Positions 3,630-50,360 are shown, numbered from the stretch's first letter. The stretch: 64,000 nt of DNA from Nitrososphaeria archaeon (GCA_963760525.1 CAVXDT010000010.1:8098-72097), one strand, 5' to 3'. The notes: generated by a model from the sequence alone, not told the origin. Translations and numbers: made by a program.

Positions 3630-3944
3630 TCATGGCAAGGTGACTGTTCGAATATAGTTAGATCCAATTTCTGTGTGAATCGAGACTTTGTAGTCGACAT
3701 TTGAAGATAATGGGGTACTGAAGCTCAATATAACAGTCCGCACCTCTCCTATTTTCAAGACAAAGGGCATTTCAGGACTTGATATTATGCCATTCATGGA
3801 GTTGACAGGTTTATCGTTTATGAATACGTCTGTGATATTAGCCTCGATATTGCCAGTGTTCTCGACAATCACCGATAACTCGGTCAAGCTATTACGGTGA
3901 ACATCTTTTACTGTAAGCCTTTCAAAATGAGTTGTTAACCTCAC
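3630..3944 (-). CDS. small beta-rich protein translationally coupled to paralog 2
   Basis: 104 aa. Its GTG start overlaps the stop of the 3941..4507 gene by 4 nt. The alternating polar/hydrophobic pattern suggests an Ig/CARDB-like sandwich. No signal peptide. Confidence 0.45.
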   Translation of the reverse strand: MRLTTHFERLTVKDVHRNSLTELSVIVENTGNIEANITDVFINDKPVNSMNGIISSPEMPFVLKIGEVRTVILSFSTPLSSNVDYKVSIHTEIGSNYIRTVTLP

Positions 3945-4507
3945 ACACTGACCAGAACGTAGATTCCTGCGTTTAAGGGCGAGGACACTATTGTCTCACC
4001 TGATTGATAATCGCGTGGGGCAAATATCATTCCAGCTCTCGGGTTACTGTGGTTCGTAAATTGTATACTTATCTTGATTGGATAACACCATCCCACATTA
4101 ATTCTCTCCCAAGTCCCGTCAGGGAACGTGGCCCTGATGTAGCGAACCGAGCAGCCGGTAATTGTGGTGTTGAGTGGCATACTGTAGAAGGTGACGTTTC
4201 TAAATGAAACCGATGCTCCCCCCTGCAAGTCTCCCACATACTTGTACTCAAAAGTGCCCATGTTTACAATTTCAAATTCGCCTTCATCTGGCAATTTTGG
4301 CACCGGAGAAGTGGCAGTTATAGTAGATGTAGTATACCAAGTTTCTGTTGTGGACGGTGTTGAAGTTACCGTAGTGGTGGAAGTAGTTATCCTTGAACTC
4401 TTTAACTGCTGAACCTGAACAAATTCATAAGCGGAAATAGAACCGAAGATTATGGTAAGGACTGCGAATGCCACCAAAAGCACACTTCTGAACTTGGAGA
4501 ATGACAT
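3941..4507 (-). CDS. surface protein, paralog 2
   Basis: 188 aa. The N-terminus MSFSKFRSVLLVAFAVLTIIFGSISAYEFVQVQ is followed by a Thr-rich stalk and the same C-terminal domain as paralog 1 (GCSVRYIRATF...NVGWCYP...TNHSNPRAG). Confidence 0.6.
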   Translation of the reverse strand: MSFSKFRSVLLVAFAVLTIIFGSISAYEFVQVQQLKSSRITTSTTTVTSTPSTTETWYTTSTITATSPVPKLPDEGEFEIVNMGTFEYKYVGDLQGGASVSFRNVTFYSMPLNTTITGCSVRYIRATFPDGTWERINVGWCYPIKISIQFTNHSNPRAGMIFAPRDYQSGETIVSSPLNAGIYVLVSV

Positions 4508-4679
4508 TATACTACTATCAATTAGGCGGATAAGCGGACAGTTGATAATAAAGGTTCTTTAATCTGTCGGTTTGTAATCCTTCACAAATTCTCAGTAAAA
4601 GAATACAGTTCTCCTTCTCTAATGAGAAAAGGATGAGCAATCATTGTATGGCCTATTCCACAATGTAATCGAGCATTTA

Positions 4680-5288
4680 TCATCTTTCTTCGACCATAAG
4701 ATAGAATCCTTCAACTATGAGTGAATTACCGTTTGAGATGATTATTCCAGCCTTGGGAGAGTGGATTGTGAAATACATGAGAGGTCGAGATTCTAAAGGT
4801 ATTATAAATATCTTTATCACTTCTGAAACTCCGTCTCTAAATGTGACCTTTATGAAAAAAACTGGAACCATATATGTTTCAGTAGCATTATGTTTTAGGT
4901 TAGTGAAGTTTACATTTCTAAAGATTATTGACGAGCCTTCTTCGAAAGTTTCTATACGCTTGTACGCATAGTCCTCTACATCGTTTAATATTATAGACCC
5001 TTCATCTGGAAGCATAGGTTTCGAGGTCATCACCGTGGAAGTGAATGTGGTGGAGTAGGTGGTTTCTGCCACTGTCGAAGTGATCATAGTTGTGGTCATA
5101 ATTGTAGCGGTAGTAGTATATGTAGTTGGGGGTGTGCTCTTTAATTCTTCAACCTCGCTATTCAAGCGGGAAATTTCCTTGTTCAGACCATCTACTTGAA
5201 CAAACTCATATGCTGATATGGAACCGAGTAACAGAAACATTATAGCGAAGGCTATAAGTAGAGCGTCTCTAAACTTAATAGAAGACAT
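4680..5288 (-). CDS. surface protein, paralog 3 (divergent, lacks the Cys pair)
   Basis: ORF 4680..5408, with the likely start at the internal Met giving MSSIKFRDALLIAFAIMFLLLGSISAYEFVQVD. It has a coiled-coil-like segment, a Thr-rich stalk and a related C-terminal domain. Confidence 0.55.
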   Translation of the reverse strand: MSSIKFRDALLIAFAIMFLLLGSISAYEFVQVDGLNKEISRLNSEVEELKSTPPTTYTTTATIMTTTMITSTVAETTYSTTFTSTVMTSKPMLPDEGSIILNDVEDYAYKRIETFEEGSSIIFRNVNFTNLKHNATETYMVPVFFIKVTFRDGVSEVIKIFIIPLESRPLMYFTIHSPKAGIIISNGNSLIVEGFYLMVEER

Positions 5289-5456
5289 TATCTTGTTCAA
5301 CACTGTGTTTTTGCTTAAAAACTTTAGAAGGGAGTAAAAGTCAGGTTTGAGCCCAAATATTTGTGTCAATACCCGGCCCTCGGCACTATTATTTGCCCTC
5401 TTTTGCATGTAAGTTTATAAAATTATTGTCATGAGATTAGAAAGAGAGCAGATAAT

Positions 5457-6256
5457 ATGAAGTCTCTGTCCTGAATGCGGAAGTCAACTCCCTTCTGAAA
5501 CCGTTAAGTTTTGTCCAAATTGTGGTTTTAGCATAGCGGCAATTTCAGGCAGAGAAACTCCTTCACTTGAGGATTCCACAACACCATCATTATCCACGCT
5601 TCCACTTGCTGATTCTCAAGCTCAGACAAACCCTACAATCCCCACTGACTCAACTCCTCCCCCCAATGATCAACCTCCAACTATGAAGGATTCCTCCAAA
5701 AAGCTCGCAGTCAGCTCCGGCAAAACTTCTGGAAAAACCGCATTCGCTGTTGGCAAACCCACAGGGCAAAAGGTTCTTCCCAAACTACTCGAACTCACCG
5801 GAAAACAGTTACAAGATTTAATAGAAAACGCATCAAAAGAGGAAGATAGTGGGATAGAGGAAGGAGTAGCAGGGAAAGAGCTCGAAGGATATCGTAGCAG
5901 ACATATTTCAAATGCGGAAATATGAAGTCCGACAAAGGAACTACCACGTTTACGAAAGAGAAATAGACATAGTGGCGGCAAGAGGAGGGAACGCGGTTAT
6001 GGTAGAGTGCAAAGCGCGTTCAAATCCCCTGAGAACAAGAGATTTAGATTCATACATCTACTTATTCCAACATCTTAGGCATCAACGTTTTAAAGACGCA
6101 ACAATTCAGAAACTCATAATTGTAGCCCCAAAAGGCGGCGTTTCGAGTTCCGCCAAGGACAAAGCGTATCGGGAGATGGGCGATTCCATAGACTTCTGGG
6201 AGAAAGATAGGTTCATTCAGGAATACGAGAAAGTCAAATATGAAGTCAAATATTAA
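5457..6256 (+). pseudogene. Zn-ribbon + Mrr-cat-like PD-(D/E)XK nuclease, two frame disruptions
   Basis: ATG at 5457 gives MKSL and then a stop. The +1 frame continues CPECGSQLPSETVKFCPNCGF (zinc ribbon), a P/T/S-rich linker and ...GKELEGY. A second +1 shift near 5893 gives VADIFQMRKYEVRQRNYHVYEREIDIVAARGGNAVMVECKA, a restriction-endonuclease-type core. Confidence 0.7.
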
Positions 6257-6337
6257 TAGCAAGAAAGCCATCCTGAGCCAGAGTATTAAAGTATAATAAT
6301 AGTTACTTCCACAATATACTCGTAAGGGGAGAATAAG

Positions 6338-6820
6338 TTGGCTGGTTCAGACTTTTTAGTATCATTGGGCTTGTGGTTTGTTCGAGCTTTCATTTCAAGT
6401 CTCATTTGTCTGGTGATTGGATACATCGGAATTAGATGCATCACACTTATGACGACGAAGATCAAAGAGTTCGAAAGCCTCAAGGGTAATTCTTTAGCAA
6501 CTGGCCTTTTTGTCGGTGGCTTTTTTGTTTATGCTGGTTTGGTTGTCTATGGTTCGATGGTCAATCCTTTCTTCCTTTCTCAGTCAGTGACTGTGGGCGC
6601 ATACTTCAACTTGCAGAGACTCCTCGTTGTAATCATCAGTTTCTTCGTAAGTCTGTTCTTCGGTGGCATGTTCTATCTGGTTTTTGCCAAGCTCAGACCT
6701 TTCGGCGTTGACCTAGACGATATCAATAAGCATCCTATGGCTATTGGAATCTTCCTGTTCTGCTATGAGGTGTTCCTAGGACTCATCATGTTAGCAAGCT
6801 TGACCATTCCCATGGGATAG
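6338..6820 (+). CDS. DUF350-like integral membrane protein
   Basis: 160 aa with a TTG start preceded by GGGGAG. Four or more TM segments and an EFESLKGNSLATGLFVGG motif resemble DUF350 (YjfL-type). The frame is intact. Confidence 0.55.
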   Translation: MAGSDFLVSLGLWFVRAFISSLICLVIGYIGIRCITLMTTKIKEFESLKGNSLATGLFVGGFFVYAGLVVYGSMVNPFFLSQSVTVGAYFNLQRLLVVIISFFVSLFFGGMFYLVFAKLRPFGVDLDDINKHPMAIGIFLFCYEVFLGLIMLASLTIPMG

Positions 6821-6834
6821 CTGAGGAACAGCAA

Positions 6835-7671
6835 ATGACTCGCATACGGTTCCTGACTTTGTTGTCCATTTTCTGTGTTTAGTTGTTTCTCAGAGCCAAA
6901 CTGCCAACGGACTTCCAGCCTCAAGATTCACTATGAAGGAAGGCGATTGGTACGACAACTGGGGAATAGACAGAAACTATTACGCGGGGAACTCACGGTT
7001 ACCTACCCAACCTTGCGACTGAAACGCTCAACGAAAACAAAGAGCTCGCTTACGGTATTGGCGAGAGGTTTAAAGCTAACTATCCAAGTGAAACAGATAG
7101 GGCAGTTGCCATTTTGAAGTATGTTCAAACGTGGACGAAGTATGGATATGATAGCGATAACGTCGTTAGAGATGGCGTCCCTCAAGAAGAGTGGGCATGG
7201 AACGCTGATGAGATGGCGCACGCCTTCAACGAAACCACAGGCGTTAAGGCAATCGGAGACTGCGAAGACATGGCTTTCTTATGCGGCACAATCTATGTCG
7301 GTGCAGGTTTTGACGCTGCTATCGTGGATGCCCCCGATCACGTGTGCTCTGTTGATTTGGCTTCCTGAGTTCTCAAACGCAAACAACTATTGGGATATTC
7401 CGAATGACGGCAGAGACGCTGGTTGGATATGGGTTGAAGCTACTGGTAGCTCTAACCCTCTAGGTTGGACTCCGCCAGATTTCGAAGACGGCGGTGGACC
7501 GCGTATCCTATAGGTAGTTTGGAATTTGTTACTAATACTGTTACTCCCACTGCGTCTGAACCAACTCAGACGACCTCAACGTCAACCTCGATTGACATTG
7601 ACCTTCTGGTGGCAATTGCTGTAGTAATATTCTCAATCATTTCTGCTCTTACGAAGGCGCGTGGACGCTGA
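6835..7671 (+). pseudogene. secreted transglutaminase-like cysteine protease with C-terminal TM anchor, at least 4 frame disruptions
   Basis: The pieces read across frames. Signal peptide MTRIRFLTLLSIF / LCLVVSQSQTANG...MKEGDWYDNWGIDRNYYAGN. Next THGYLPNLATE...AIGDCEDMAFLCGTIYVGAGFDAAIVDAPDHV (Cys motif and His). Then ALLIWLPEF...GWIWVEATGSS, and finally TAYPIGS...TQTTSTSTS + LLVAIAVVIFSIISALTKARGR. Confidence 0.7.
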
Positions 7672-8004
7672 ATTTACTTGAATATCATGATGAGCGATTC
7701 CACTTAATCTGATGACTCCTTTCGCACGACAAAATCTGCCCCTTCATCATCGACTTTTGATGAATATACATCGAACCCATATTCGGTAAACTCCATCCTA
7801 ACGAAGTATTCTACATATCAAGTTGAAGGCGTTAAGGCTGCTCCATTCATATTTCTGGGTAGCATACTTCAAAGATAATCATAACAAAGTGGAAAAGCTT
7901 ATTGTGAATCTTACTAACGAAATTAATGCAAGCGCATAGCACAAATTTAAATAAGCATTTGGGTCTTACATTTTATTGCGGGGAATAGTGGGAATTAGTG
8001 AGTT

Positions 8005-10428
8005 ATGACTTCAAAAAATAGTTCGGGACCAAAAGAGCTAAGTGGAAACAACTTTTATGCAGATTCAGAAAAAGGTTTAAGCTCAGATGAAGTTCAAAAA
8101 AGATTAGAGGAATTTGGATACAACGAAGTTCCAGAGAAGAAGGCTAACCCTCTCTCCCAATTTGTGAAGAGGTTTTGGGGCGTAACACCATGGATGCTTG
8201 AAGTAACCATAGTACTCGAATGGCTTCTAGGAAAATTACTTGAAATGTACATAATATCTGGGCTTCTAGTCTTCAATGCAGTTTTGGGCTTTTTGAAGAG
8301 GAAAGAGCTAACTCTGCGCTTGAGCTTCTTAAGCAAAGACTGAGAGTCAACGCGAGAGCAAAACGTAGTGGGGCTTGGACATTGATTTCTGCAAGAGAGC
8401 TAGTACCTGGAGACATCATTAGGCTTAGAGCAGGTGACCTTATTCCCGCAGACACCAAGGTATTAATTGGGAGCGCTGAAGTCGATCAGTCATCACTAAC
8501 CGGAGAGTCCCAAGCAGTCGAAAAACAAGTTAATGAAGTATTATATAGTGGTTCAATCCTTAGAAGAGGCGAAATATCCGGTATTGTTGTCTCTACGGGT
8601 GTAAAAACGTATTTTGGAAGAACCGTGGAGCTAGTCCAAGTTGCGAAACCCAAGTTGCACATGGAAGAGGTGACTTCCAAGGTTGTAAAGTGGCTTGATG
8701 GCGATTGTGGGATCATTTCTTTCAATTAGCATAGTCGTCTCCATCTTGAGAGGGATGGATATACTGGAGATACTTCCGTTAGCGGTCGTTCTTTTGATTT
8801 CGGCAATACCTGTTGCTCTGCCTACGATGTTCACGGTCACCATGGCCCTTGGCTCCTTGGAAATGATGAAGAAAGGGATACTGGTTACAAGGCTGAGCGC
8901 AAGCGAGGATGCGGCGACGACGGATGTAATATGTGTTGATAAGACTGGGACAATTACCATGAACAAGCTTCAAGTGGCGGAGACTGTGCCTGCAAGAGGA
9001 TACAGAAATGAGGATGTAATATTGTTTGGCGCTTTAGCATCTAATGAGGCAAACCAGGACTCGATCGACCTTGCTTTCCTATCAGCTGCGAATAACATTA
9101 GTGACCCAATTTGAAGGTTATTTGCAAGAGAAGTTTGTGCCCTTTGATCCTTTGACCAGGAGAACAGAGGCTATTATCTCCATAGAAGGGAAGAGATTTC
9201 ATGTGCTTAAAGGAGCGGTTGGAACTATATTCTCTTTGTGCAAGATGGGCCAAGAAGCATCAAGCCAGATGGGAGAGGGAAGTTGAGCGATTATCAAATA
9301 AGGGGTATAGGGTGATAGCTGTAGCTGAAGGTAAAGCTGACTATGACATTAACATGGTAGGTTTAGCTGCGTTGTATGACAAGCCTAGACCTGATTCCCA
9401 AGAGCTAATAACTGAGCTTAATGAAGTTGGCATTTCAGTGAAGATGTTAACTGGAGACGCTTTGCCAGTAGCTAAAGAAGTTGCAGAGCAGGTCGGCTTA
9501 GGCAAAAACATTGTCAAGTTCTCAGATGTAAAAGGGCTCCCGGAGGACGAACTCATTAAGACTTTGGAAGGAAATAGTGGATTCGCGGAGATCTATCCGG
9601 AGGACAAGTACTCTATAGTTAAGAGTCTTCAGAGAGGAGGGCACATTGTTGGAATGACAGGCGATGGCGTCAACGATGCTCCTGCCTTGAAACAGGCTGA
9701 AGTAGGTATAGCTGTAAGTAACGCTACGGATGTAGCTAAGAAGGCTGCCAGCGCTGTCCTCACAACAGAAGGACTAGTGGGTATACTGGACCTAATTAAA
9801 ACCGGTAGGATCATACATCAGAGGATAATAACTTGGATTCTTAATAAAGTGGTCAAAACATTCCAGATAACCATTCTAGTAGTCCTCGCATTTCTTCTGA
9901 CAGGAACGTACATAATATCCGCGTTTCACATGATCTTACTGATATTCTTAACAGATTTTGTAACCTTATCGTTATCAACAGACAATGTTCGATATTCTGA
10001 AAAACCAGATAGCTGGAATATAACAGGCCTGGTCAAGGTGGCTGTTTGCCTTGGGGGTTATAGTTGTGGCAGAGTTGCTGATCATACTCGGAATAGGCCT
10101 TAATTACTTTGGGCTCGGGAACAATATCAATCAATTGTATACTTTTTCGTTCGAACTGCTGATCTACGTGGAATTATGTGATATGTTGATAGTTAGGGAA
10201 CGGAAACATTTCTGGAATTCGAGACCCAGTAATCCTTTACTAATAATAATTTTAGGCGACCTATTGCTTGTCTTCCTCATATCAATTTTTGGGTTACCTG
10301 GGGTGACTCCGATAAATCCAATCATCGCTCTGATGGTTCCAGCGTTTTCTTTCACTGCAGCCTTCTTAGTGAATGATTTCATCAAGGTACCTTTAATAAA
10401 GAAGTTTTGGTCGAGAGTAGGTTTCTGA
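8005..10428 (+). pseudogene. type III (plasma-membrane H+-type) P-type ATPase, five frame disruptions
   Basis: Six consecutive ORF fragments (8005, 8382, 8695, 9044, 9201, 10051) together give a colinear P-type ATPase. Motifs present are TGES (SLTGESQAV), the phosphorylation site CVDKTGTITMNKL, and the hinge MTGDGVNDAPALKQAEVGIAV. Junctions lie near 8290 (T5 run), 8695, 9097, 9268 and 10055 (G5 run). Confidence 0.85.
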
Positions 10429-10522
10429 TGTATGACTCAATTCATTTGAGTCTGTCCTAGACATAGGCAATCAAAAAGACAAAGAACATGAGGGCATCAT
10501 CACATCAAAGAGAACATAACCT

Positions 10523-10918
10523 CTAATGCAGCCTTTCCACATGATTCTCTAGTGTTCCATTTATGTAAGCTTGTACTGCCTCATCAGCATCAATCTTATC
10601 AGTCAAAAAGGGTTTGATACCTGACTGTTTGATGGATTCATACGCGCCCCATCCCATTCCTCCTGCTATCAACGCTTCACAGTCCAGCACGTTAGAGAGC
10701 ATAGTATTATGTAATGCAGTCTCTCCGATGCCATGGTTGTGGTCATGGCTCAAACTATCGTCATGATGACTCATGCCTTCAAGATGACGCCCTGCCTTAG
10801 GCCTCGTTTCTATTCTTTGCGTTTTCTTATCCTGTATATCATAGACCTGATAGTATCTGGCTCTTCCAAAATGTGAGGATATCGTCTTCCCGTCGTCTGT
10901 AACTACGGCTATCTTCAT
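10523..10918 (-). CDS. NifX/NifB-C-terminal-like (dinitrogenase FeMo-cofactor-binding fold) protein with His-rich insertion
   Basis: 131 aa. MKIAVVTDDGKTISSHFGRARYYQVYD is typical of the COG1433 family. The insertion HLEGMSHHDDSLSHDHNHG is His-rich. Confidence 0.75.
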   Translation of the reverse strand: MKIAVVTDDGKTISSHFGRARYYQVYDIQDKKTQRIETRPKAGRHLEGMSHHDDSLSHDHNHGIGETALHNTMLSNVLDCEALIAGGMGWGAYESIKQSGIKPFLTDKIDADEAVQAYINGTLENHVERLH

Positions 10919-10929
10919 GTTCCATTCCC

Positions 10930-11454
10930 CTATTCAAAGATTACAGAAGCAACCTTCTTCTTGGCCTCTGATAGTATTTCATGTATCTTGTTCATCTTTT
11001 CTTCGTCAACGTACTCCCCGTTTTGGAAGACCATCGCTTGAATGTCCCTCACATCCCTCATGAAACCGAATGTGCCCATTCTATCTGTGTACTCTTTTCC
11101 AGCCTTGATTCTCTCCACTATGTCCTTATTATCATCAAGGTACTTCTTACCTTCAAGAGTCAACGAGTAGATCTTCTTTCCTTCCTTCTCTTCGTAAACA
11201 ACATACCCTAGGTCCTCAAGCTCTTGAAGTGTAGGATAGATCATTCCAGCACTGACAGGCCGCTGATGTTCCCTACCTATCTCCTGGATAAGGGCGTATC
11301 CGTGCATTGGCTTTTCCGATAAAGCCATCAAGACGAGGAAGCGGAAATCTCCCCTCCTCACTCCGAACGGTCCCCAGTGCATGTGCCTTCCTCCAGAGCA
11401 ACCCATCTCATCTGAGCATCCATGTCTCATACTATTGTGTCCACGTTCACACAT
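10930..11454 (-). CDS. PadR-family transcriptional regulator with Cys/His-rich N-terminal extension
   Basis: 174 aa. FLVLMALSEKPMHGYALIQEI...GMIYPTLQELEDLGYV is a PadR wHTH. The N-terminus MCERGHNSMRHGCSDEMGCSGGRHMH is rich in Cys and His. Confidence 0.8.
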   Translation of the reverse strand: MCERGHNSMRHGCSDEMGCSGGRHMHWGPFGVRRGDFRFLVLMALSEKPMHGYALIQEIGREHQRPVSAGMIYPTLQELEDLGYVVYEEKEGKKIYSLTLEGKKYLDDNKDIVERIKAGKEYTDRMGTFGFMRDVRDIQAMVFQNGEYVDEEKMNKIHEILSEAKKKVASVIFE

Positions 11455-11621
11455 ATTATATCACACAACATATCTATTGATATATTAATAAACATATCTT
11501 CATTTTCTCCCTATTAACTCCTATATCGGTTCAATTTTGGGATTCGAATTAGAACCACAAATAAGTCATTGAGTTGGTCACCAGAAGGGTGTCTCGGACA
11601 AGCTGTGGCATTTTTTTGTAC

Positions 11622-12788
11622 TCAATTGGCAATCTTATTTGTTCTTTTCGATTGAACATTGCGGACGATAAGCCGAGACACTCCAAGCATCTCTCCTTCT
11701 GTCGACCAACGCCCCAAGCTCAAGCGTAAAGCTCCCAACGCCTGTTCTCTTGTAAGACCCATCGCAAGAAGCACAGCAGATGGTTCTGTTGATCCAGCAT
11801 GGCAAGCTGAGCCCGTAGAAGCAGCGATTTCAGGCATCTGGCCTAATAGTTCCTCGCCTACCACATCCTTGATGCTTATGTTAAGAGTGTTAGGTAGTCT
11901 CCGTTCAGGGTGACCATTAAGCTTTACAATCTCTTCGCCCAAGCCAGTAAGAATGTTGCGGTGTAGCTTATCCCTCAAGGCCCTAATGTCTAGACCGAAA
12001 TTGTGGACAGTGCCTGAAGCTATCTCACACGCGCGACCCAATCCAACAATGTATGGCACGTTCTCTGTACCAGCCCGTCTTCTCTTTTCCTGTCCGGCTC
12101 CATGGACGAACATATCGAGGTTGGTCCCACTTCTAACGTACAAGGCGCCAATTCCTTTTGGAGCGTACAACTTATGCCCTGCTATCGTGAGCAAATCCAC
12201 GCTCAGTTTGACAACGTTGACGTCAATCTTACCGCATGACTGGGCTGCATCACAGTGGAAGATAACATCCTTCTCTTTTGCGATCCTGCCTATTTCTTCA
12301 ATAGGTTCGATAGTCCCTACCTCGTTGTTTGCATGCATTATGGTGATGAGTACTGTTTCGTCTGTTATCGCGTTCTCCACATCTGAGGGATTTACCATTC
12401 CATATTTGTCTACGGGTAAGCAGGTTATCTTGAATCTGAACTTCTCCTTCAGATATTCTAATGTTTCAAGAACTGAAGGGTGTTCGATTCGCGAAGTAAT
12501 TATGTGTCTTCCCTTTCTAATATTAGCGAGAGATGTTCCGATAATAGCATGGTTGTTGCTTTCGGTACCTCCGCTTGAAAATGTGATTTCGTCTGGTTCT
12601 GATCCAATCAGTTCAGCAACTTGTTTTCTTGCTATGTTCACAGCTTCTTTTGCCAGTTGCCCGTATGCATGATTACTTGACGGATTTCCAAAACGTTCCT
12701 TGAAGTAAGGAAGCATTGATTCAAGAACTTCTGGGTCAATGGATGTTGTAGCATTATAGTCCAAGTATATCGGCATCATGGTTTTCAT
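11622..12788 (-). CDS. cysteine desulfurase (NifS/IscS class V aminotransferase)
   Basis: 388 aa. Motifs seen are SSGGTESNN, the PLP-lysine region AGHKLYAPKGIGALYVR and the catalytic Cys loop STGSACHAGS. Confidence 0.9.
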   Translation of the reverse strand: MKTMMPIYLDYNATTSIDPEVLESMLPYFKERFGNPSSNHAYGQLAKEAVNIARKQVAELIGSEPDEITFSSGGTESNNHAIIGTSLANIRKGRHIITSRIEHPSVLETLEYLKEKFRFKITCLPVDKYGMVNPSDVENAITDETVLITIMHANNEVGTIEPIEEIGRIAKEKDVIFHCDAAQSCGKIDVNVVKLSVDLLTIAGHKLYAPKGIGALYVRSGTNLDMFVHGAGQEKRRRAGTENVPYIVGLGRACEIASGTVHNFGLDIRALRDKLHRNILTGLGEEIVKLNGHPERRLPNTLNISIKDVVGEELLGQMPEIAASTGSACHAGSTEPSAVLLAMGLTREQALGALRLSLGRWSTEGEMLGVSRLIVRNVQSKRTNKIAN

Positions 12789-12925
12789 CTATTCATACCA
12801 CCTGTCCAATTTACAATAGCCATCTTTCCACATCTCTTAAATAGTATGAACATAAGATCTTCTCCTCGTTACTCCACGTACTTCCGAGTTCTTTATCCAC
12901 CCCTCTCTTAGTCAACCAAAAAGCC

Positions 12926-13249
12926 TTAACCAAACGTTAACACTTTATCGGATTCTTCCACCAGCTTCACCAAATCCTTCATAGTGGAAATTGGACAAAC
13001 CGCAGAACCCCCTTTTTGTCTAGCTTTCAAGCAAGTGCCGCATGCCAACATTTCCCCCTTATTCGCAATGAACGAATCTATTTGTTCTTTCAAGTTGAAC
13101 TTTTCACCTTTAATATTTTCTGCTTCTACACCTTTATTAATCAAGAACATTTTTACTGCGTGATTTTCCTTTAGCGCAACATTCCCAAATCTAAACGCGT
13201 TCCAGACTTCCTCATCGTCATTAGTGCTCAACACAATACCGATCTTCAT
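12926..13249 (-). CDS. DsrE/DsrF-like family protein
   Basis: ORF 12926..13300, with the likely start at MKIGIVLSTNDDEE. It has a DsrE-like fold signature and an ACGTC...VCP cysteine motif. Confidence 0.6.
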   Translation of the reverse strand: MKIGIVLSTNDDEEVWNAFRFGNVALKENHAVKMFLINKGVEAENIKGEKFNLKEQIDSFIANKGEMLACGTCLKARQKGGSAVCPISTMKDLVKLVEESDKVLTFG

Positions 13250-13394
13250 CTTTGTAACACAATAGAAACATCTATAGATGGTATATAAAACCTCCCCCAT
13301 TTGGATAACATGAAAATAAAGGTATTTTCCACATAATTATCCTAGCCTTAATAATCTAGAATGGAATCTTCATTATTGTTCTATCGTTTATATA

Positions 13395-14144
13395 TTGGGT
13401 ATCTTAAGTTAACACAGAGAGTGGCTTTTCATAGCAGTTAGCGGTGACAATTTCATATTATCTGTATCAAACTTAAGTGTAAGAATTAAAGACCAAGTAA
13501 TTTTAGACAACATAAGCTTCAAACTCAAGAAAGGCACGACCTTGGCTATAGTGGGACCTAATGGCGCTGGCAAGACCACGTTATTTAGAGCATTACTGAA
13601 CCTGGCACCTTATACCGGTAAGATCGAATGGGAGGACAAAGTGAAAATAGGTTATGTTCCTCAGAAGCTTTATGTGGGAGACATACCGATTTCAGTAAAG
13701 GAGTTTCTGGCATTCAAATGTGGCATGAATGAGCAGGTTAGAAGTTGCGTTGAATCAGTTGAGTTGGAAATTGAATCGATACTTGATAGAAGACTCAGCG
13801 TTTTATCAGGAGGACAACTTCAAAGAGTGTTGATAGCTTGGGCTCTACTTGATAACCCGAATGTTCTCTTGCTTGACGAGCCAACAAGTGCTATACATAT
13901 CGACAGTGAAGAGGCAATCTACGAAATGTTGAACAAGCTTGAGAGAAAACAGAGAATAACCACGCTCATGATAACACATGATATACATCTTGTTCGAGAC
14001 TTTTCAGAATACATGCTGGCTTTGAACAACAGGTTGGTTTTCTTCGGAAAATCTGAAGAGATAACAAATCCTTCATTACTTCAGACCATCTACGGCAGTG
14101 GAACAGTGTTGAAGTCGCGGAAGGAAAGAGGATTATCTGCATGA
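13395..14144 (+). CDS. ABC transporter ATP-binding protein (ZnuC/MntB-type metal importer ATPase); start uncertain
   Basis: Walker A GPNGAGKTT, signature LSGGQLQR and Walker B LLLDEPTS are present. The frame is open upstream of the track start through ILSVSNLSVRIKDQVILDNISF. No ATG is present, so TTG at 13395 is the best candidate start. Confidence 0.8.
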
Positions 14145-14926
14145 CGGAAACGCTCTTACTTAGCCTTATCACCTCAATCGCAGTAGGTCTTGCAGCGGGT
14201 TATCTTGGCTCACTTATGGTGTTGAAGAGAATGGCTCTAGTTGGCGATGCCCTATCACATGTGGCTCTTCCCGGACTGGCTTTAGGTATACTGTTCAACT
14301 TCAACCCCTTCTTTGGAGCATTTGTTTTCCTTTTCGTATCTGCAACTGTGATCTGGCGTATCGAAAGGATCACTAGATTACCAGTTGAGACGATTGTAGG
14401 TTCACTATTTACACTTTCTCTTGCTGTTGGAATACTTGTTATTCCTCAATACGATTTACTTGAAGCACTCTTTGGTGACATCTCCAAAGTAAATTTGGAA
14501 AGTACAATAGTCGCAATAGCTGCTTCTCTTCTTGCTATTCTCTTGACAAAGATCATTTACAAGAATCTGATTTTGAGCATGATTTCAGAGGAGCTTGCTA
14601 CATCAGCGGGTATAAATGTTGCGAGAACGAATCTGTTATTCCTCTTATTCGTGTGCCTTACAGTAGCTGCAGGATTGCAGATTGTTGGAAGCCTGTTAGT
14701 TGGATTCCTAGTTGTAGTTCCAGCTGCAACTGCGAAGATTGTGAGTTCTAATATATTTCGATATGCTGTCTTAAGCTCTCTATTCGGCGCAATAAGCTCC
14801 TTCTTTGGAATTTTATTATCTAACTACATGGGTTTGCCTCCTGGCCCACTAATAGTCTTGTCCGGAATTCTCTTGTTTTTGGGAGCAGTCACAACGCGGT
14901 CTATCTCTAAAAGCTTTATTTACTAG
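14141..14926 (+). CDS. ABC-3 family metal transporter permease (ZnuB/MntC-type)
   Basis: 261 aa with 7-8 TM segments and GDALSHVALPGLALG typical of the ABC-3 family. There is a 4-nt overlap with the upstream ATPase gene. Confidence 0.8.
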   Translation: MTETLLLSLITSIAVGLAAGYLGSLMVLKRMALVGDALSHVALPGLALGILFNFNPFFGAFVFLFVSATVIWRIERITRLPVETIVGSLFTLSLAVGILVIPQYDLLEALFGDISKVNLESTIVAIAASLLAILLTKIIYKNLILSMISEELATSAGINVARTNLLFLLFVCLTVAAGLQIVGSLLVGFLVVVPAATAKIVSSNIFRYAVLSSLFGAISSFFGILLSNYMGLPPGPLIVLSGILLFLGAVTTRSISKSFIY

Positions 14927-15049
14927 ACTTCAGAATTTACCATTTTGAGATTAGTGCCCAAGCTACTTTGACGGTTTATTTCAATAGACTCAAGCAGAAC
15001 TAGCGTCCTGATAGGTCTGATTGGAGTTCATAAAGCGATGATACTGGTT

Positions 15050-16398
15050 TTACTTTGCTAATGTTCCCATTGGATCCCAACATGGGAGGACAATAGGTTC
15101 GGTGTCTAGAGCTTTTAAGAGCTCTGGAGAGAGGTATTTTTTCCTAACGGTTATTTCGTACAGGTATTCGTCGAACCATTCATCCATCATATACATATAA
15201 CCTTTGTCCCCAATCGTAGCCCCCCAGCTGTTTTCAACTCGCCATTTTCTCGGTTTGCCTTTCTCATCTAGGTCCACACCTGTTAAGACCATGGCGTGAG
15301 TCATCTCGCTGTTCCTATAGTCCAATCTTCCAGCTTTATCAAGTTTGAAATCCATTCCGAAGACGAGTTTATAGTCATATACGTTCAAATCCATTGCGCC
15401 CATCTCTGTTTCAAGCATCTGGGCTACGTCGCAGCCGAACCAAACCGCATGGTTATCCTTTATCATATCTACGGCAGCTTTCTTCAATGTCATCATATCA
15501 ACATTTAAGTAACGAACCGGACGTCCACCGATGACGTTACCGAGATACTGCACTGTGTAGAGTTTATTATAGGGCTTGTCCTTGGTTGGGGCGTTTATTA
15601 GGCAGACTAGATCATTCAGGTCAATATCCACATATTTCTTGTAGAACTCTTCTGGTGTTATGTTACCATGCCTGTGGAATATGTTGTCCTTGTCCCGCCA
15701 CTCCCAGTAGAAATTGGTCGGAGGTTTCCCAAGTGAATGGCGAGCATCCTATAGAACTCTTCGAGCATTTCTCCTTTTGACCTGCGCAGTTCCTGTGCAG
15801 GAGAACCCTGAGAATGCAGGTCTCTGAGCGTTTTCGCATATTCCCTTAGCTTGGCTACAAGCAGGGTGTTCATGGGATCAGAGTTGCTGCTACTGTCTGT
15901 CTCTGGCATAAAAGACTTCGGTACCACGCCGTACTTCTCTACGAGATTCACAAACATGTCCCATTGCCCACCATCGGAAAGTGGGTCAGAGAGAAGCGAC
16001 AGCACCAACCTGCTATCCAATGGCTCATCCCTGGTCTCGATGATGTTCTCAAGAAAGAAGTTCGCCTTCTCTAGTTTATCCCAGAACATCTGGTAGGCCT
16101 CCGAAAGTTCAAAAGTCTTAAGGTTCAACTTCTTCATAGCCTCTAGGCAAAGAGAACTAAGCCCGGAGAATAGCCAACATCGCCCTGACCGCTCCTGATT
16201 AGTAGCCTCCGGCGACTCTATAAGATGACTAAATGTGTAGTTAATTCGGTCAACTTCCTTCCGACTCAAAGCTACAGCAGCTATACCGTTCTCAGTCACA
16301 GCGTTCAACGCAAGAAGATTCTTAGGATCCCTATCAAAAGATGTTAAAAACCGCTTAACATCCGCATTCTGGATAGTCTTATCCAAGATATTTCTCAA
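15050..16398 (-). pseudogene. pepC: aminopeptidase C / bleomycin hydrolase (peptidase C1B), one frameshift
   Basis: ORFs 15658..16398 (active-site region NQERSGRCWLFS) and 15050..15631 (HAMVLTGV...ENSWG) are colinear with PepC. The frames join at AIHLG|KPPTNFYWEW, at an A/T3 run near 15725-15728. Confidence 0.8.
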
Positions 16399-39210: not shown

Positions 39211-40010
39211 ATGAAAGCCATCTTGGTCACAAACGATGATGGATATGATAGCGAAGGAATAAGATCTCTATATGATTCAGTTAAGGATTTAGGTGAAGCC
39301 TTCGTTGTAGCACCAGAGCGCCCCCAAAGTGGTGCAAGTATGAGCCTTACATTTCATAAACCATTAAGGGTTAGCAAAGTAATGATAGGGGATGTTCTAG
39401 CTTACTCTGTCTCTGGAAGCCCTGCGGATGCGGTAATGTTAGGAATACATTCTGTTCTAAAAAGGAGACCTGATATCGTGGTTTCAGGAATAAACTATGG
39501 AGATAACACAACTTTCCAAGATGTCTTCGCAAGTGGCACAGTTGCTGCAGCAATAGAAGGGGCAATAAATAAAATCCCATGTATAGCTTTTTCAATGTGC
39601 GTTCCAGAAATGGCAATTTTTTCTCCTGGGCTTATAGGCGTAAATTTCAAGGAAGCAGGACCTGTCTCCAAGGCTATAACTGAATGGATTCTTCAGAAGA
39701 ATCTTCCACGTGGAGTGGACATTTTAAATGTCAATTATCCGTTAAAAATTGACCGAAACACGAAGACAATTATAACAAAGTTGGCCAAAAGGAAGTATTC
39801 GGATTTTGTCATAGAAAGAAAGGATCCAAGGGGAAGGGCTTATTATTGGATTTGGGGTAGAAGGTTCAGTAAGTTCAGAAGTGGACTGATGCTTATGCCA
39901 TACATCATGAAAAAGCCATCTCAATCACGCCTATCGGTCTCAATCTTACAGCATTTGTGGACAGGGGGGAGCTTAAGGACTTGGTGGAACTTGTTAATAG
40001 TAGACTTTAG
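39211..40010 (+). pseudogene. surE: 5'/3'-nucleotidase SurE, one or two frame shifts near the C-terminus
   Basis: MKAILVTNDDGYDSEGI, SGINYGDN and the C-terminal TDAYAIHHEKAISITPIGLNLT are found in a different frame after YYWIW (G4 run at 39854-39857 and about 39880). Confidence 0.8.
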
Positions 40011-40013
40011 GAA

Positions 40014-40319
40014 TCAAACCTTTTCAATTATCTTCACATCATCACTAGTATAGCATTCTGCTGCAACAACTGCAGAATCATTTGAAGGAGAAATGTAAAG
40101 AGCCCTTGCCCTTAATATAATAAGCGAGGACTGTTGCCCAATACCTAGACTTATCACGGCTATTTCTTTACCCGACATTGAAGTTATGGCTACTGTTATT
40201 GATGGCGTTCTCAATGTTAATCCTGATAATACATCACCGTCCTTAAAAACTAGAAAATTATCTTTGGCAGCTATGAAATTCAGCTTTGCCGGCTGTTGAA
40301 AAACATATTCTGAGCTCAA
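40014..40319 (-). CDS. hypothetical protein
   Basis: 101-aa ORF with a TTG start and no motif recognised. Confidence 0.35.
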   Translation of the reverse strand: MSSEYVFQQPAKLNFIAAKDNFLVFKDGDVLSGLTLRTPSITVAITSMSGKEIAVISLGIGQQSSLIILRARALYISPSNDSAVVAAECYTSDDVKIIEKV

Positions 40320-40379
40320 TTCTACTTACCATATGTTAGCAACGTTCATAACTCTTATCTTGATGTACAGTATGGCAAT

Positions 40380-40667
40380 ATGGTCAGTACTCCATACTTC
40401 AGAGGAAGAAGTAGAGAATATAGAGCTATGGGAGCGCTTAGGGTAGAAGGTTGGAGATGTAGCAGAAGCGCTATGTCACATGGCCCAGTAGACATATTCG
40501 CTGGAAAAGATGGAAGAATACTTCTTATTCAAGTCAAAAGCGGTAAAGCTAGAATGAGTAAACAGGAAAGAGAGAAACTAATTGAATGGGCTAAGGCTTT
40601 TGGAGCAGAAGCCGAGATATGGTATTATTCAGGAAAGAAAGGAAATACAATCGAAAGAGTTGCCTAG
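40380..40667 (+). CDS. small Hjc-like PD-(D/E)XK nuclease (Holliday-junction-resolvase fold)
   Basis: 95 aa. It aligns by eye with archaeal Hjc: SREYRAM (E), PVDIFAG (D), LLIQVKSGK (Q-x-K in place of E-x-K), followed by EREKLIEWAKAFG. Confidence 0.5.
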   Translation: MVSTPYFRGRSREYRAMGALRVEGWRCSRSAMSHGPVDIFAGKDGRILLIQVKSGKARMSKQEREKLIEWAKAFGAEAEIWYYSGKKGNTIERVA

Positions 40668-41087
40668 TACAGCCTATTGAAAAAAAATCTTCCTCCCCAA
40701 AGATAACTCACGGACGATAGTCTTAATTTACTCCGCTCAAAATCAGCTTAATCCAATAAGCAATAGTGACTGTAAGAATGTAAGCATGCTCTGTCTACCT
40801 TAATCTTCACGATTACTCCGTTTCAAGTTCGAATGGAATGTCTCATCTTCTCTGTTCTCTAAGCTTGAGGTCATATAGTAATAACAAAACACCTAATAGA
40901 CCCAGCGCTAGCACTAGAACAGAAAGCGGAAACATGAAGTCTAGTTCAAAGATCGTGAGCATTCCCATACAAGCCCCTACCTATTACAAGTATTGATATG
41001 CCTTATTAACTATTCAATATCCCAAGATACATGAGAATCAAGGCTCGATGAAAACATTAATAAAAGTCAATCCTCAGATTATGGTTT

Positions 41088-42525
41088 GTGAACACGGAAA
41101 ACTTAGATTCTGATATTCCCCTCTATGCAGTTGCAGAAGCTGAGAAAGCAGGTGCAGAATATGCTGAAGCAAGATTGCAGGCAAAGAAAGACATTATGGT
41201 AGCAATAAGAAATGGACAACAAGAACCGATTGTTACAAGCGAATCTTTTGGCTTGGGTGTAAGAGTAATCAAAGAAGGAGGCTTAGCTTTTTCTGCTACA
41301 AATGTCCTTGATAAAGAAAACATACGTCTACTTGTAGAACAAACAGTCAAGAAAGCACAAGCGACGTCCACCTTTGTTCAAAAAGGGATTAAATTCAGCA
41401 GAGAAAGGAAAGCGAAAAGAAAATGGAGAGCACAAGAAAAAGACAAATTGGAGGACAAGAACTTCGAAGATATCATGAAGATACTCCGTGAACTTGACAA
41501 CATTATTCTTCTGAGGAGGGACTATATTCCCATGAGGATCTTGGAGATGGACATCACGATTGATGAAAAAATCCTAAGTAACACACAAGGGACATTCATC
41601 CAAGGATATGTACCAAGAATTTACGTTGAAGGCTTTTTGACAGGTATGAAAGAAGGAAAAATGGCACAGAAGTCGATAGAATATGGCGGTAGTGGAGGAT
41701 GGGAGATAATCGAAACCTTGAAGATTAGAGAAGAAATACAGCATGAGACAGATGTCATAAAACAGATCATTGAGAAGGGGCGAGCGGTCACTCCTGGCAA
41801 TTACGATATTGTGACCGGTTCTGAAGTCACTGGTATAATGGCCCATGAATCCATAGGACACCCCTTCGAGGCAGATAGGATATTGGGTAGAGAAGCAGCT
41901 CAAGCTGGCGAATCTTATCTGAAGTCTTCTGACATTGGAAGAAAGATAGGTGATAATGAAGTTAATGTGAGTGATGACCCGACCATTCCGAATTCATATG
42001 GCTTCTACCTGTATGACGAAGAAGGAATCCCTGCGAAGAAAAAGAAGACTTGTTGTAAACGGTATTGTAAATGAACTCTTACATAACAGAGGTACAGCCA
42101 GAGAGTTCGGGACAAAAAGCAATGGTTCCTCGAGAGCTTCGGCATTTGACCGTGAACCCATAGTTAGAATGGCAAACACTTTTGTTGAGCCCGGAAGCTA
42201 CTCTTTTGAAGAACTCATCAGAGAAGTTAAGAATGGAATATACATGAACTCTTTCATGGAATGGAATATAGACGACACAAGATGGAATCAAAGATATGTC
42301 GGTCATGAATCCTACCTAATAGAGAAAGGAGAGATCAGAGCTCCTATAGTCAACCCCATCATAGAAATTACTACTGAGAGATTGTGGGGTAGTCTAGACG
42401 CTAGAGGAAAAGATCTTAGATTTTGGGCCGCTACATGTGGCAAGGGGGACCCTATGCAAGGTGCCCCAGTTTGGGCCGGTGGACCAAACCTAAGATTCAA
42501 GAACATGATGGTGAAGACAAGATGA
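41088..42525 (+). pseudogene. tldD: TldD metalloprotease, one frameshift at an A5 run
   Basis: ORFs 41088..42074 (GTG start; HESIGHPFEADR zinc motif) and 41971..42525 join as EEGIPAKKK|RLVVNGIVNELLHNR at the A-run 42039-42043. Confidence 0.85.
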
Positions 42526-43862
42526 ACACTGAAATCCTCGATAAAATGACTGACATAGCCTTCAATAAAGCCAAGAGTCTCGGTGCTGATGACATTTCTG
42601 TGATTTCAGCATATGGAGAGGAGTCGATGCTCCGTTTCAGCAACAATTCAGCCACAATTACCAACACACTAAAGGAGGCAGCTCTGTTTGTATACATGAG
42701 CAAAAATAGAAGGAGAGCCATAGGAACCACATCTTCAGTCAATGGGATAAGCTTAGACAAATTTGTAGAAAACCTATTCGAAAGTCTGAGACTTGTGGAA
42801 GAGAGCGTTGATTATGTACAATTGCCAAAGGGTCCATTCAAGTTTAATGCTCAAAGTACATTTGACCCCAGAATAGAGGAGCTTGGAGAAGATATTGTTG
42901 AACAAGGTGTGATAGCTGCGAATGCAGCCTTACAGGGAGGGGCGAAAAGAGCCTCTGGTGTACTCACGGCCAATGTTGGAACTTATGGGATAAGAACCTC
43001 TGCAGGTGTTGAAGCTTTTGACAAAGACAGTTCTATAACAATCAATGTTAGAGCGTTCACTGAGAAGAATTCCAGCGGACATGGGCTGTCATGTGCAGCT
43101 ACACTTCCACGGTTCAGTGCAGAAGAAGCAGGCACTACTGCTGGCACATTCGCAAAGGAATCTGAAAGGGTGGGTCATTGGGAAGAAGGTGAATATGACC
43201 TTATAATGGGACCGACTGTTGCTGCTAGCATTGTGCAAGCTATTGGATATTCATCTTCAGTATTTCGAATTGAATCGGGGACTTCCTTCCTGAGGGATCT
43301 CCTTAGTAGGAAAGCTGCTGCAGAAAACTTCACTTTAGAGGACTGTGGTGTAATAGAAGGCGGATTTGGTGGAAGGGCATTTGATGATGAAGGTGTACCT
43401 ACACAGAATACTACTATTATAGAATCTGGAACCCTCAAGACCTACCTGCATAACTCCTCAACTGCAAACAAATATCGCGTCAAGACAACTGGAAATGCTG
43501 GAGTAATTGCACCTCATCCATGGAATCTGGTCGTTAAGCCAGGTAAGATCACAGTTGATGAAATGATTGGTGATTCAAAGAAAGCGGTCTATGTTACAAA
43601 CAACTGGTATACTAGATATCAGAACTACTTGACTGGCGACTACTCCACACTGCCTAGAGACGCAGCTTTCTTGATAGAAAGCGGGGGAATAAAATATGCA
43701 ATAACTGGCTCAAGAATTAGTGACAATATTCCAAGGCAAATGCTTAACATAAAGGCAATAGGCAAAGAGACCAAATGGATTAAATGGTGGGAAGTCGACA
43801 CTCCGACATGCACCCCAGCATTACTGATAGAGAAAGCCAGAATAACAAAGGCACAAATGTGA
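42522..43862 (+). CDS. pmbA: PmbA/TldE protease partner
   Basis: Likely start MNTEILDKMTDIAF at 42522, overlapping the tldD stop (ATGA). Family-typical GNAG...PWN and NWYTRY motifs are present. Confidence 0.85.
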   Translation: MNTEILDKMTDIAFNKAKSLGADDISVISAYGEESMLRFSNNSATITNTLKEAALFVYMSKNRRRAIGTTSSVNGISLDKFVENLFESLRLVEESVDYVQLPKGPFKFNAQSTFDPRIEELGEDIVEQGVIAANAALQGGAKRASGVLTANVGTYGIRTSAGVEAFDKDSSITINVRAFTEKNSSGHGLSCAATLPRFSAEEAGTTAGTFAKESERVGHWEEGEYDLIMGPTVAASIVQAIGYSSSVFRIESGTSFLRDLLSRKAAAENFTLEDCGVIEGGFGGRAFDDEGVPTQNTTIIESGTLKTYLHNSSTANKYRVKTTGNAGVIAPHPWNLVVKPGKITVDEMIGDSKKAVYVTNNWYTRYQNYLTGDYSTLPRDAAFLIESGGIKYAITGSRISDNIPRQMLNIKAIGKETKWIKWWEVDTPTCTPALLIEKARITKAQM

Positions 43863-44087
43863 CGCATGGTTTATTAGTTCAAATAATACAGCGGTTTTCT
43901 CTTGTTCATATATTGTTGTAAATAAGTGAATTAGGGCGGGTATTGCTCTGGCATTTCGACCATTGCTATAGATTTTTTGATGCAAAATGCCAATTGAACG
44001 TGATTATTTCCGCCTCTAGATACCATGCTGCTATGGTAAGTTTGATAATGTTTATTATTTAGGCGAATTTTTTTCTGGCGGTAGCTG

Positions 44088-45683: not shown

Positions 45684-45826
45684 TATAATGATATATCCCG
45701 AATCCAACAAGCCACTGAATTTGAATGGAAAAATATCCTGAGTTGCCAACATTGCTTACATAATAAGTAACCTTAAATGGATGCACTGTTGTCAGGCAGG
45801 TTCCTTCTGTATTTGCACTTAATTCA

Positions 45827-46762: not shown

Positions 46763-47016
46763 ATTTAGAATTCGACTTTGTTTTTCTAATAAAGGTTTTG
46801 ATGCAGTATGGAATTTACTAATTACTGTAACCATCAAAGATGGATCTATCCCTCAACTGATCAGATTAATCGATTGCCTTCTGTTGCGCATTATTATGTA
46901 AACAAAAAAAGTGAATTAGAATGCGATATTATTTGGGACGTTCGTCATAAGTGCACTTTATTGGTTGTTGTATACCCAATTCATGTAGCTACACGGGCAA
47001 ACTTATCAATTCAATA

Positions 47017-48239: not shown

Positions 48240-48400
48240 AAAACAGAAACAAAGAGATTCTTTAATAAACCTATCTGAGTATGAAGAAAAGACAAACTTT
48301 GATGAAGAAGACTTGTTATATTCTGGGGAATTCACTCTATCATAAGCGTCCTAAATCTCTATGCGTTAACCTAATATTCAAGTGATGCTTACACCATAAG

Positions 48401-50242: not shown

Positions 50243-50360
50243 AAAAAGTTTCCTAAGAATTCTTTGGAATGGTCTAGAGGAAAGACACTAAATTGACTTC
50301 TACAATACAATATTCAAGCCTTAGGAATTCGGACTATTGTAAAAAGAGAGTTCAATAAGT

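Follow-up and report, generated by a model that had tools for sequence, protein, structure and literature searches.

Clustered One-Base Frame Shifts in the Assembly of a Nitrososphaeria Archaeon: Probable Consensus Errors in a Predicted Acquired Island

Three consecutive genes in the MAG of a Nitrososphaeria archaeon, encoding a nuclease-like protein, a transglutaminase-like protein and a P-type ATPase, are colinear with full-length homologs but cannot be translated in a single frame. This raises the question of whether the organism has lost these genes or the assembly has misread them. The locus (positions 5457–10428, hereafter the block) lies within a stretch of 64,000 nucleotides that was analyzed as a whole and is referred to as the window. 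The original prediction, made from the sequence alone, offered three alternatives, namely an accessory island that was inactivated recently, a consensus region of low coverage or mixed strains, and an error-prone assembly of a divergent haplotype.

Frame shifts and their density in the block

A total of 12 one-base frame shifts were counted across the 4,972 bases of the block, with two in the Mrr-like nuclease gene, four in the transglutaminase-like gene and six in the ATPase gene (Table 1). About 11 disruptions had been expected, two, at least four and five in the respective genes; all 11 junctions exist within a few bases of their predicted places, and a twelfth was added at 10415. At least 11 of the events involved exactly one base (for the event at 5466, either +1 or −2 would fit), and approximately nine of the 12 were insertions. 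Several sites were located outside homopolymers and some in short homopolymers. The read-throughs of all three genes were colinear with their homologs and contained no in-frame stops, and no larger or out-of-frame deletions were seen in these genes, in agreement with the original prediction.

The background was estimated in two ways: by inspection, which revealed seven frameshifts in conserved genes over the remaining 59 kb of the window, and by comparison with Logan contigs, which gave three indels per 14.3 kb. The block thus showed an 11–20-fold excess over the window background, and the Poisson probability of at least 12 events in it ranged from 2e-12 to 1e-9, which bears out the claimed more than tenfold density. 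The embedded DUF350 gene is uninterrupted, as had been noted, and was 87% identical, without gaps, to its homolog in L181/L182. Its intactness was considered as a sign of selection and rejected, since 12 events would all miss its 483 nt with a probability of 0.29, which is not significant; the gene therefore does not serve as an informative contrast to its neighbors.

A genome-wide ab initio count of frameshifts, based on a 3-periodic Markov model and a 7-state Viterbi frame tracker, returned 171 candidates. At the cut-off used for this count, the tracker recovered just three of the block's 12 events, and on inspection most of its other calls were ordinary operon gene boundaries; the count and its clustering test were therefore discarded.

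Table 1. Genes, frame changes and polymorphic positions in and at the edge of the block (window coordinates).
Feature	Position	Strand	Basis or remark
Zinc-ribbon and UPF0102/Mrr_cat PD-(D/E)XK nuclease-like gene, three frames	5457..6256	+	Frame reading; Pfam on C-terminal piece
Frame change 0 to 1 just past ATG (MKSL / CPECG)	5460..5470	+	Homologs read M..(K/Y/F)CPECG
Frame change 1 to 2 (+1) at about 5890, ...GKELEG / IVADIFQMRKY...	5885..5897	+	Homologs unbroken, GKEFE-DIVADIFQVRKY
DUF350 membrane protein gene, intact, 160 aa, TTG start	6338..6820	+	Pfam PF03994
Secreted, C-terminally anchored transglutaminase-like (Cys-His core) gene, three frames, four changes	6835..7671	+	Homolog alignment
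−1 at 6877/8, T3 in window vs T4 in homologs	6875..6880	+	A6 column 549
+1 at 6985, adjoining G4 run	6983..6988	+	A6 column 657
+1 at 7342 in CACGTGTG, non-homopolymer	7340..7345	+	A6 column 1014
−1 at 7494/5 in GGCGG^TGG, non-homopolymer	7492..7497	+	A6 column 1167
Plasma-membrane proton-efflux (type IIIA) P-type ATPase gene (predicted), six open pieces and shifted last codons	8005..10428	+	Pfam; homologs
−1 at 8295/6, after TTTTTG	8293..8297	+	A2 column 325
+1 at 8694, non-homopolymer	8692..8700	+	A2 column 725; A1 column 710
+1 at 9102, non-homopolymer	9100..9104	+	A2 column 1133
+1 at 9274, GGG run	9270..9275	+	A2 column 1305
+1 at 10053, G5 vs G4 in 3/3 homologs	10049..10053	+	A2 column 2084
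+1 at 10415, relocates stop codon; not in Logan contig L175	10413..10417	+	A3 column 332
Five SNPs vs Logan contig L175, all synonymous third positions	10084..10311	+	Marks second haplotype

The disrupted genes and their homologs

The zinc-ribbon frame of the Mrr-like gene lacks a start codon of its own. Its read-through was colinear with seven homologs of 207–273 aa, all of which carry PF02021 (UPF0102) and PF04471 (Mrr_cat), and several also the zinc ribbon PF13240 or PF13248. In the Pfam search, the UPF0102 match was above the cut-off (E = 1.8e-6), and Mrr_cat remained under the cut-off on the fragment. The gene is thus predicted to belong to the Mrr/UPF0102-type class of PD-(D/E)XK nucleases.

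The transglutaminase-like protein represents a large family without Pfam annotation, for which 704 homologs were found; the best 120 of the 704 were 250–291 aa long, and the six that were aligned were 268–270 aa. The read-through was at most 86% identical to homologs in the alignment. The four shifts were placed by DNA alignment to L181/L182 (A6), in which the natural indels of the gene measured 24, 6 and 6 nt. The gene was absent in 40 relatives and common in metagenomes. In other contigs, too, a DUF350 gene is located directly 5′ of the transglutaminase-like gene.

The pieces of the third gene matched the Pfam families Cation_ATPase_N, E1-E2_ATPase and Hydrolase, and its read-through contained CVDKTGTITMN and MTGDGVNDAPALK, that is, the DKTGT and TGDGVNDAPAL motifs. 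The protein was 87–91% identical to proteins named H+-transporting or proton-efflux ATPase, reaching 91% amino acid identity with the intact 804-aa gene of genome G004 over the 300-aa piece searched. The gene is therefore a predicted type IIIA P-type H+-ATPase. Full-length DNA alignments (A1, A2) included three homologs, two of them intact and the third (G004_C19) itself shifted by +1. The indels at 8295/6, 8694, 9102, 9274 and 10053 were present in the window only and in none of the three homologs.

The proposed dN/dS check was applied to two of the reconstructed ORFs. Pairwise dN/dS was 0.13 for the ATPase and 0.36 for the transglutaminase-like gene. On the ATPase tree, the window branch carried 45 nonsynonymous and 102 synonymous changes, compared with 33 and 73 on the branch of the intact G004 sister (Fisher P = 1). 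Thus, no excess of nonsynonymous change, and hence no relaxed selection, was detected on the ATPase window branch.

Independent assembly, second haplotype and acquired island

Logan provides an independent k-mer assembly of run ERR10755944. Contig L177 (10,622 nt; window 39868–50490) differed from the window by three one-base indels, at 39876, 39963 and 42039, with no mismatches, and contig L176 (3,654 nt) was identical to the window, so that no substitutions were found over the 14.3 kb compared outside the block. The three indel sites are the frameshift sites of SurE and TldD in the window; both frames are restored in Logan, where TldD is intact (478 aa). Contig L175 lacks the extra base at 10415, and the ATPase on it ends with ...FWSK(stop), as in the homologs. 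Single frames were therefore regained at every site that the independent assembly covers, the outcome that had been named as the mark of assembly error.

Of the 12 block shifts, Logan covered one, that at 10415. Look-ups with exact products (DUF350, two ATPase pieces and two surface proteins of the left flank) returned no Logan contig over 5457–10083, and protein searches with the three read-throughs returned no near-identical products from run ERR10755944. Scans of metagenome and genome contigs with the 300-aa ATPase piece gave nothing above 66% identity, and a DNA search of 5400–8000 among 40 relatives gave no match. At 11102, the Logan contig, and not the MAG, carries a 2-nt insertion that breaks the frame of a PadR gene; Logan is thus not always the intact version.

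The right edge of the block contains a second haplotype. L175 differs from the MAG by five SNPs at the end of the block, whereas no SNPs were found in the 15.4 kb of flanks compared (Fisher P = 5e-9). Since L175 represents the other haplotype at this edge, a copy of the ATPase with an intact end exists; strictly, the MAG copy is not thereby proven wrong. A chimeric contig on the right side was considered and rejected because the end of the ATPase gene is joined to the NifX-like gene and PadR on the independent contig L175 as well. Cross-talk between paralogs was likewise rejected, since no other P-type ATPase in the genome exceeds 40% identity.

The 91% identity of the ATPase contrasts with that of the core orthologs, which was 64–65% for PmbA and 45% for the NifS-like protein. 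Together with the gene distribution, this identifies the block, at the level of sequence comparison, as a horizontally acquired island, and that part of the first alternative was upheld. Its inactivation is unsupported, since neither relaxed selection nor stop codons were observed. The other two alternatives, a mixed-strain or low-coverage consensus and the assembly of a divergent haplotype, fit both the Logan restorations and the five SNPs.

Origin of the clustered shifts

We consider the twelve shifts to be one-base consensus errors of the MAG and not mutations of the organism, with a probability of about 0.85. Indel errors occur elsewhere in the assembly, and one was found inside the block; the other 11 block sites would be errors of this kind as well. 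Such shifts also occur genome-wide, in genes that cannot be pseudogenes: the gene for the universal ribosomal protein S3Ae falls into at least three frame pieces (C14:135402-135963), and the seven frameshifts in the rest of the window lie in conserved genes. The underlying process would produce indels only and act across the whole assembly, at roughly 0.1–0.2 per kb in the window. Its density is raised 11–20-fold inside the block, presumably because the acquired island is present as at least two close haplotypes, possibly at lower depth, and reads from non-identical copies were merged at consensus or polishing. The SNPs at the right end and the acquired nature of the island suggest that mixed haplotypes or low coverage probably concentrated the errors. 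The sequencing platform was presumably of the long-read type. In real cells, the three disrupted genes are probably unbroken and maintained by purifying selection.

It is unlikely that the genes are real, very recent pseudogenes, in which a burst of one-base indels hit three of the four genes on one strain's acquired island and left a sister strain intact. The accessory, acquired nature of the block, the coexistence of two haplotypes at its right end, the +1 shift in the G004:C19 homolog and the frame-breaking 2-nt difference at 11102 between haplotypes or assemblies would all suit such an event, as would a further concentration of frame changes in accessory, defence-type genes at C14:266.9-272.1 kb. 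That concentration would equally fit the decay of accessory DNA. However, the ATPase window branch shows no nonsynonymous excess, the genes contain neither stops nor larger or out-of-frame deletions, and essential S3Ae is broken alike. Real prokaryotic pseudogenes have a deletion bias, and the predominance of insertions in the block is the opposite. Twelve indels are normally accompanied by on the order of a hundred neutral substitutions, a ratio taken from general knowledge, and wherever like shifts were checked, at three background sites and at 10415, they proved to be assembly errors. Still less probable is a narrower version, in which one strain genuinely carries the shifts: a burst of about a dozen one-base indels, insertions for the most part, would have struck the freshly acquired island with hardly any substitutions, the sister haplotype remaining intact. 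If true, it would imply that newly integrated DNA in a soil archaeon is subject to a localized mutational process prone to indels.

We find it slightly more doubtful again that consensus errors account for most shifts while a single shift or a few, such as that in the G5 run at 10053 or in the T run at 6877, reflect genuine homopolymer-length polymorphism between haplotypes. Haplotype differences at the block edge do include indels (10415, 11102), and some sites are located in short homopolymers, but nothing sets these sites apart, and all homologs have the frame-preserving length. Recoding at expression, through programmed ribosomal frameshifting, transcriptional slippage or RNA editing, is scarcely credible. 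The read-throughs are indeed perfectly colinear with homologs and free of stops; however, no motif or slippery sequence is common to the 12 sites, the aligned homologs are single-frame at all these positions, and the identical-looking shifts elsewhere are absent from the sample's DNA as assembled by Logan.

The preferred reading, consensus error, places the block close to a known class. Indel errors are a known behaviour of long-read consensus sequences at modest coverage. In such assemblies, consensus indels cause frameshift errors, which improve above about 40-fold coverage (PMC9262707; Sereika et al., 2022). The class comprises false frameshifts and truncated gene calls in assemblies and MAGs, of the kind addressed by IDEEL-type tests. 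As in Nanopore or PacBio CLR type data, nearly all events are one-base, and some are in short homopolymers; they occur genome-wide, affect essential genes too, and are absent from the independent assembly of the same run where the sites are covered, and the affected genes show no sign of relaxed selection. Unlike in that class, the density is raised 11–20 times over the local background within 5 kb, many sites are non-homopolymer, and sequence composition seems not to underlie the clustering, which appears to go with the polymorphic acquired island instead. The block also resembles collapsed-haplotype or mixed-strain regions, having a second haplotype at its edge and monomorphic flanks, although classical collapse yields chimeric SNP patterns or contig breaks and not frameshifts; the link from strain collapse to indel errors is a proposed one. 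With decaying islands and recent pseudogenes the block shares several adjacent disrupted accessory genes between intact core flanks. It differs from them in having no relaxed dN/dS, stops, deletion bias or larger deletions, and at least one of its sites is contradicted by the independent assembly.

Consensus errors in MAGs can therefore cluster strongly, 11–20-fold in this case, and coincide with a polymorphic acquired segment. Since errors cluster in such a segment, a uniform error model would wrongly flag the block as biology, and "pseudogene islands" or frameshift hot spots in assemblies of this kind should be checked against reads first. Some modest biology is left over, namely a DUF350 and transglutaminase-like cassette that is widespread and lacks annotation, and an H+-ATPase on the acquired island that shares 91% identity with its counterpart in a different genus. 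Under automatic annotation of the MAG, the proton pump, the surface transglutaminase-like protein and the nuclease would be listed as pseudogenes, and the functions of the organism would be under-counted.

Broken and intact genes of the block

The block at window positions 5457–10428 was examined by an ORF map of window 4000–12500 and three-frame translations, which were used to trace frame changes. Three plus-strand genes were readable only across frames, and a fourth gene between them was open. The block as a whole held 12 frame-shift events in 4,972 bases (see table), which confirms the original prediction of three disrupted genes with about 11 events; its junction coordinates also proved accurate in DNA alignments and frame maps.

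Indels in the P-type ATPase gene were called by DNA alignment to the homolog of G004, a genome of another genus of the same family, and to two further homologs. The G004 homolog is intact (804 aa) and was 91% identical across the 300-aa piece searched; five indels, of one base each, were found in the window only. The transglutaminase-like gene matched no Pfam family. It had 704 homologous matches, the best 120 of which were 250–291 aa long, and the six aligned homologs were 268–270 aa, with identity of up to 86% in the alignment. The read-through of the zinc-ribbon/Mrr-like gene was colinear with seven homologs of 207–273 aa. The 330-nt spacer between the transglutaminase-like and ATPase genes (7675–8004) contained only two overlapping minus-strand ORFs of 30–31 aa, one of which reads MEFTEYGFDVYSSKVDDEGADFVV...; the spacer may be a gene remnant.

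Genes and frame shifts of the block, and loci of the two-gene cassette
Feature	Coordinates	Strand	Remarks
Zinc-ribbon/Mrr-like gene	5457–6256	+	frame changes at ~5466 and ~5890
DUF350 gene	6338–6820	+	intact; 87% identity, zero gaps to homolog
Transglutaminase-like gene	6835–7671	+	large unannotated family
Shift, transglutaminase-like	6877/8	+	-1; DNA alignment to two intact homologs
Shift, transglutaminase-like	6985	+	+1; same alignment
Shift, transglutaminase-like	7342	+	+1; same alignment
Shift, transglutaminase-like	7494/5	+	-1; same alignment
P-type ATPase gene	8005–10428	+	six open pieces; Cation_ATPase_N, E1-E2_ATPase and HAD-hydrolase domains in correct order
Shift, ATPase	8295/6	+	-1; window only
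Shift, ATPase	8694	+	+1; window only
Shift, ATPase	9102	+	+1; window only
Shift, ATPase	9274	+	+1; window only
Shift, ATPase	10053	+	+1; G5 vs G4; window only
Shift, ATPase (sixth)	10415	+	stop codon displaced; extra base vs contig L175
Cassette, window	6338–7671
Cassette, metagenome contig L181	3962–5342
Cassette, metagenome contig L182	7355–8801
Cassette, metagenome contig L183	1329–2775

Background rate and independent assembly

Inspection of the window outside the block revealed seven frameshifts in conserved genes (one each in PepC, GlcG-like and TldD, two each in Cmo-type radical SAM and SurE), and independent contigs gave a background of 3 frameshifts per 14.3 kb. A genome-wide ab initio frame tracker had low sensitivity and, on inspection, poor precision; its counts were not relied on. 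On either background, the events in the block were 11–20 times the expectation (Poisson P 2e-12 to 1e-9), and the more than tenfold density proposed earlier was thus borne out. The embedded DUF350 gene is indeed uninterrupted; however, this has no weight as evidence, since 12 events distributed across the block would spare its 483 bases by chance in 29% of cases.

Contigs of Logan, an independent k-mer assembly of the public run ERR10755944, were reached via exact-product look-ups. The run evidently includes this organism. Contig L176 (3,654 nt) was identical to window 11537–15190. Contig L177 (10,622 nt), spanning window 39868–50490, matched it without a substitution and differed at just three positions, by one-base indels (39876, 39963 and 42039) that coincide with the SurE and TldD frameshift sites; TldD is intact in L177 (478 aa). 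Natural mutation does not yield three frame-breaking indels with zero substitutions; the pattern is characteristic of indel errors in the consensus of the MAG. Such errors are well documented for long-read assemblies at modest coverage (PMC9262707), a class to which this MAG may belong.

Polymorphism and origin of the block

Contig L175 (1,475 nt) extended into the block up to 10084 and reached one of the 12 sites, 10415. There it lacked the extra base of the window, and the ATPase then ends in ...FWSK and a stop, like its homologs. L175 is a different haplotype at this site, which proves the existence of an intact-ended copy, not an error in the molecule of the MAG. It differed from the window by five SNPs at 10116–10311, every one in a synonymous third position of the ATPase frame, whereas the 15.4 kb of flanks compared had zero SNPs (Fisher P = 5e-9 vs the block end). 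The population is therefore polymorphic at the block, and the all-synonymous SNPs indicate that the ATPase gene is under purifying selection in it. No near-identical copy of the block from an independent source turned up in scans of sequence collections or in protein searches.

Differences were also observed beside the block. In the minus-strand PadR-like gene (window 11100–11104), L175 has two extra bases (GC, positions 457–458) at 11102, which break the frame and shorten the protein to 108 aa, compared with an intact 174 aa in the MAG; this is either a true strain difference or a k-mer assembly error. To the left, 3941–4507 and 4680–5408 (minus strand) are two paralogous genes for Thr-rich, N-terminally anchored surface proteins. 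Searches for these exact products had no match among the Logan contigs; thus, the zone of polymorphism or poor assembly may reach further left than 5457.

The H+-ATPase was 91% identical in protein and about 88–90% in DNA to its G004 homolog (contig C2, 10047–12461 of the locus), far above core orthologs (PmbA 64–65%, NifS-like 45%), and no homologs of the transglutaminase-like gene were found in the 40 relatives searched. Together, these comparisons mark the block as foreign to this lineage. The gene neighbourhoods of the ATPase differ between the window and G004, and sequence comparison points to a pump gene that was exchanged horizontally, and recently, between members of the family. In soil and sediment metagenomes, the gene for the secreted transglutaminase-like protein is common and lies within ~14 nt behind DUF350, the two forming a conserved cassette. 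A second ATPase copy in G004 (contig C19, 7272–9720 of the locus) has its own +1 shift (column 431 of the ATPase DNA alignment); G004 may share this type of consensus error, or this copy may be a true pseudogene.

Consensus errors or gene decay

If a single strain had truly, and very recently, turned these genes into pseudogenes, the same shifts would result, but several properties of the genes make this improbable. None of the three read-throughs contained an in-frame stop. Pairwise dN/dS of the ATPase was 0.13, and in a four-sequence alignment synonymous changes outnumbered nonsynonymous ones to the same degree on its window branch (102 and 45) as on the branch of the intact G004 gene (73 and 33; Fisher P = 1). 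At equal ratios, few neutral substitutions could hide on the window branch. When a gene has taken six real indels, many more neutral substitutions normally accompany them. At least 11 of the 12 events were exactly one base (that at 5466 was +1 or -2), about nine were insertions, and the indels fixed by evolution in the transglutaminase-like gene measured 24, 6 and 6 bases. This gene also held compensating pairs, -1/+1 108 nt apart (6877/6985) and +1/-1 152 nt apart (7342/7494), and SurE held a -1/+1 pair 87 nt apart (39876/39963). Since both SurE shifts were shown to be assembly errors, the pairing suggests local misalignment while the consensus was built. Opposite-sign shifts were often paired ~90–235 nt apart, including about 32503/32738. 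On contig C14 of the same MAG, the gene of the universal ribosomal protein S3Ae (135402–135963) was broken into three or more frame pieces; being essential, it cannot be a pseudogene, and its break-up points directly to assembly error.

A second dense run, with about 6 same-strand frame changes in 5 kb, was observed at C14:266900–272130, a few kb from the contig end. It comprises ParB-like, McrB-like AAA and other defence-type genes, the McrB-like one reading in at least three frames, and could be compatible with either error or decay. Pseudogenisation, with a low probability, and a mixture of consensus errors and genuine shifts, with a chance of a few per cent, were retained because of this run, the PadR difference, the single site reached by Logan and the other haplotype of L175.

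Consensus errors could have been multiplied where the consensus drew together reads from at least two close haplotypes, as the foreign origin of the block and its polymorphism in the population would suggest. Lower depth of a variable island, and stray reads from ~90%-identical copies in co-occurring relatives, are candidate added contributors. The shifts in the block are very probably not a biological feature of this archaeon; very probably, consensus errors of the assembly are concentrated locally here, in an island that was acquired horizontally and is polymorphic.
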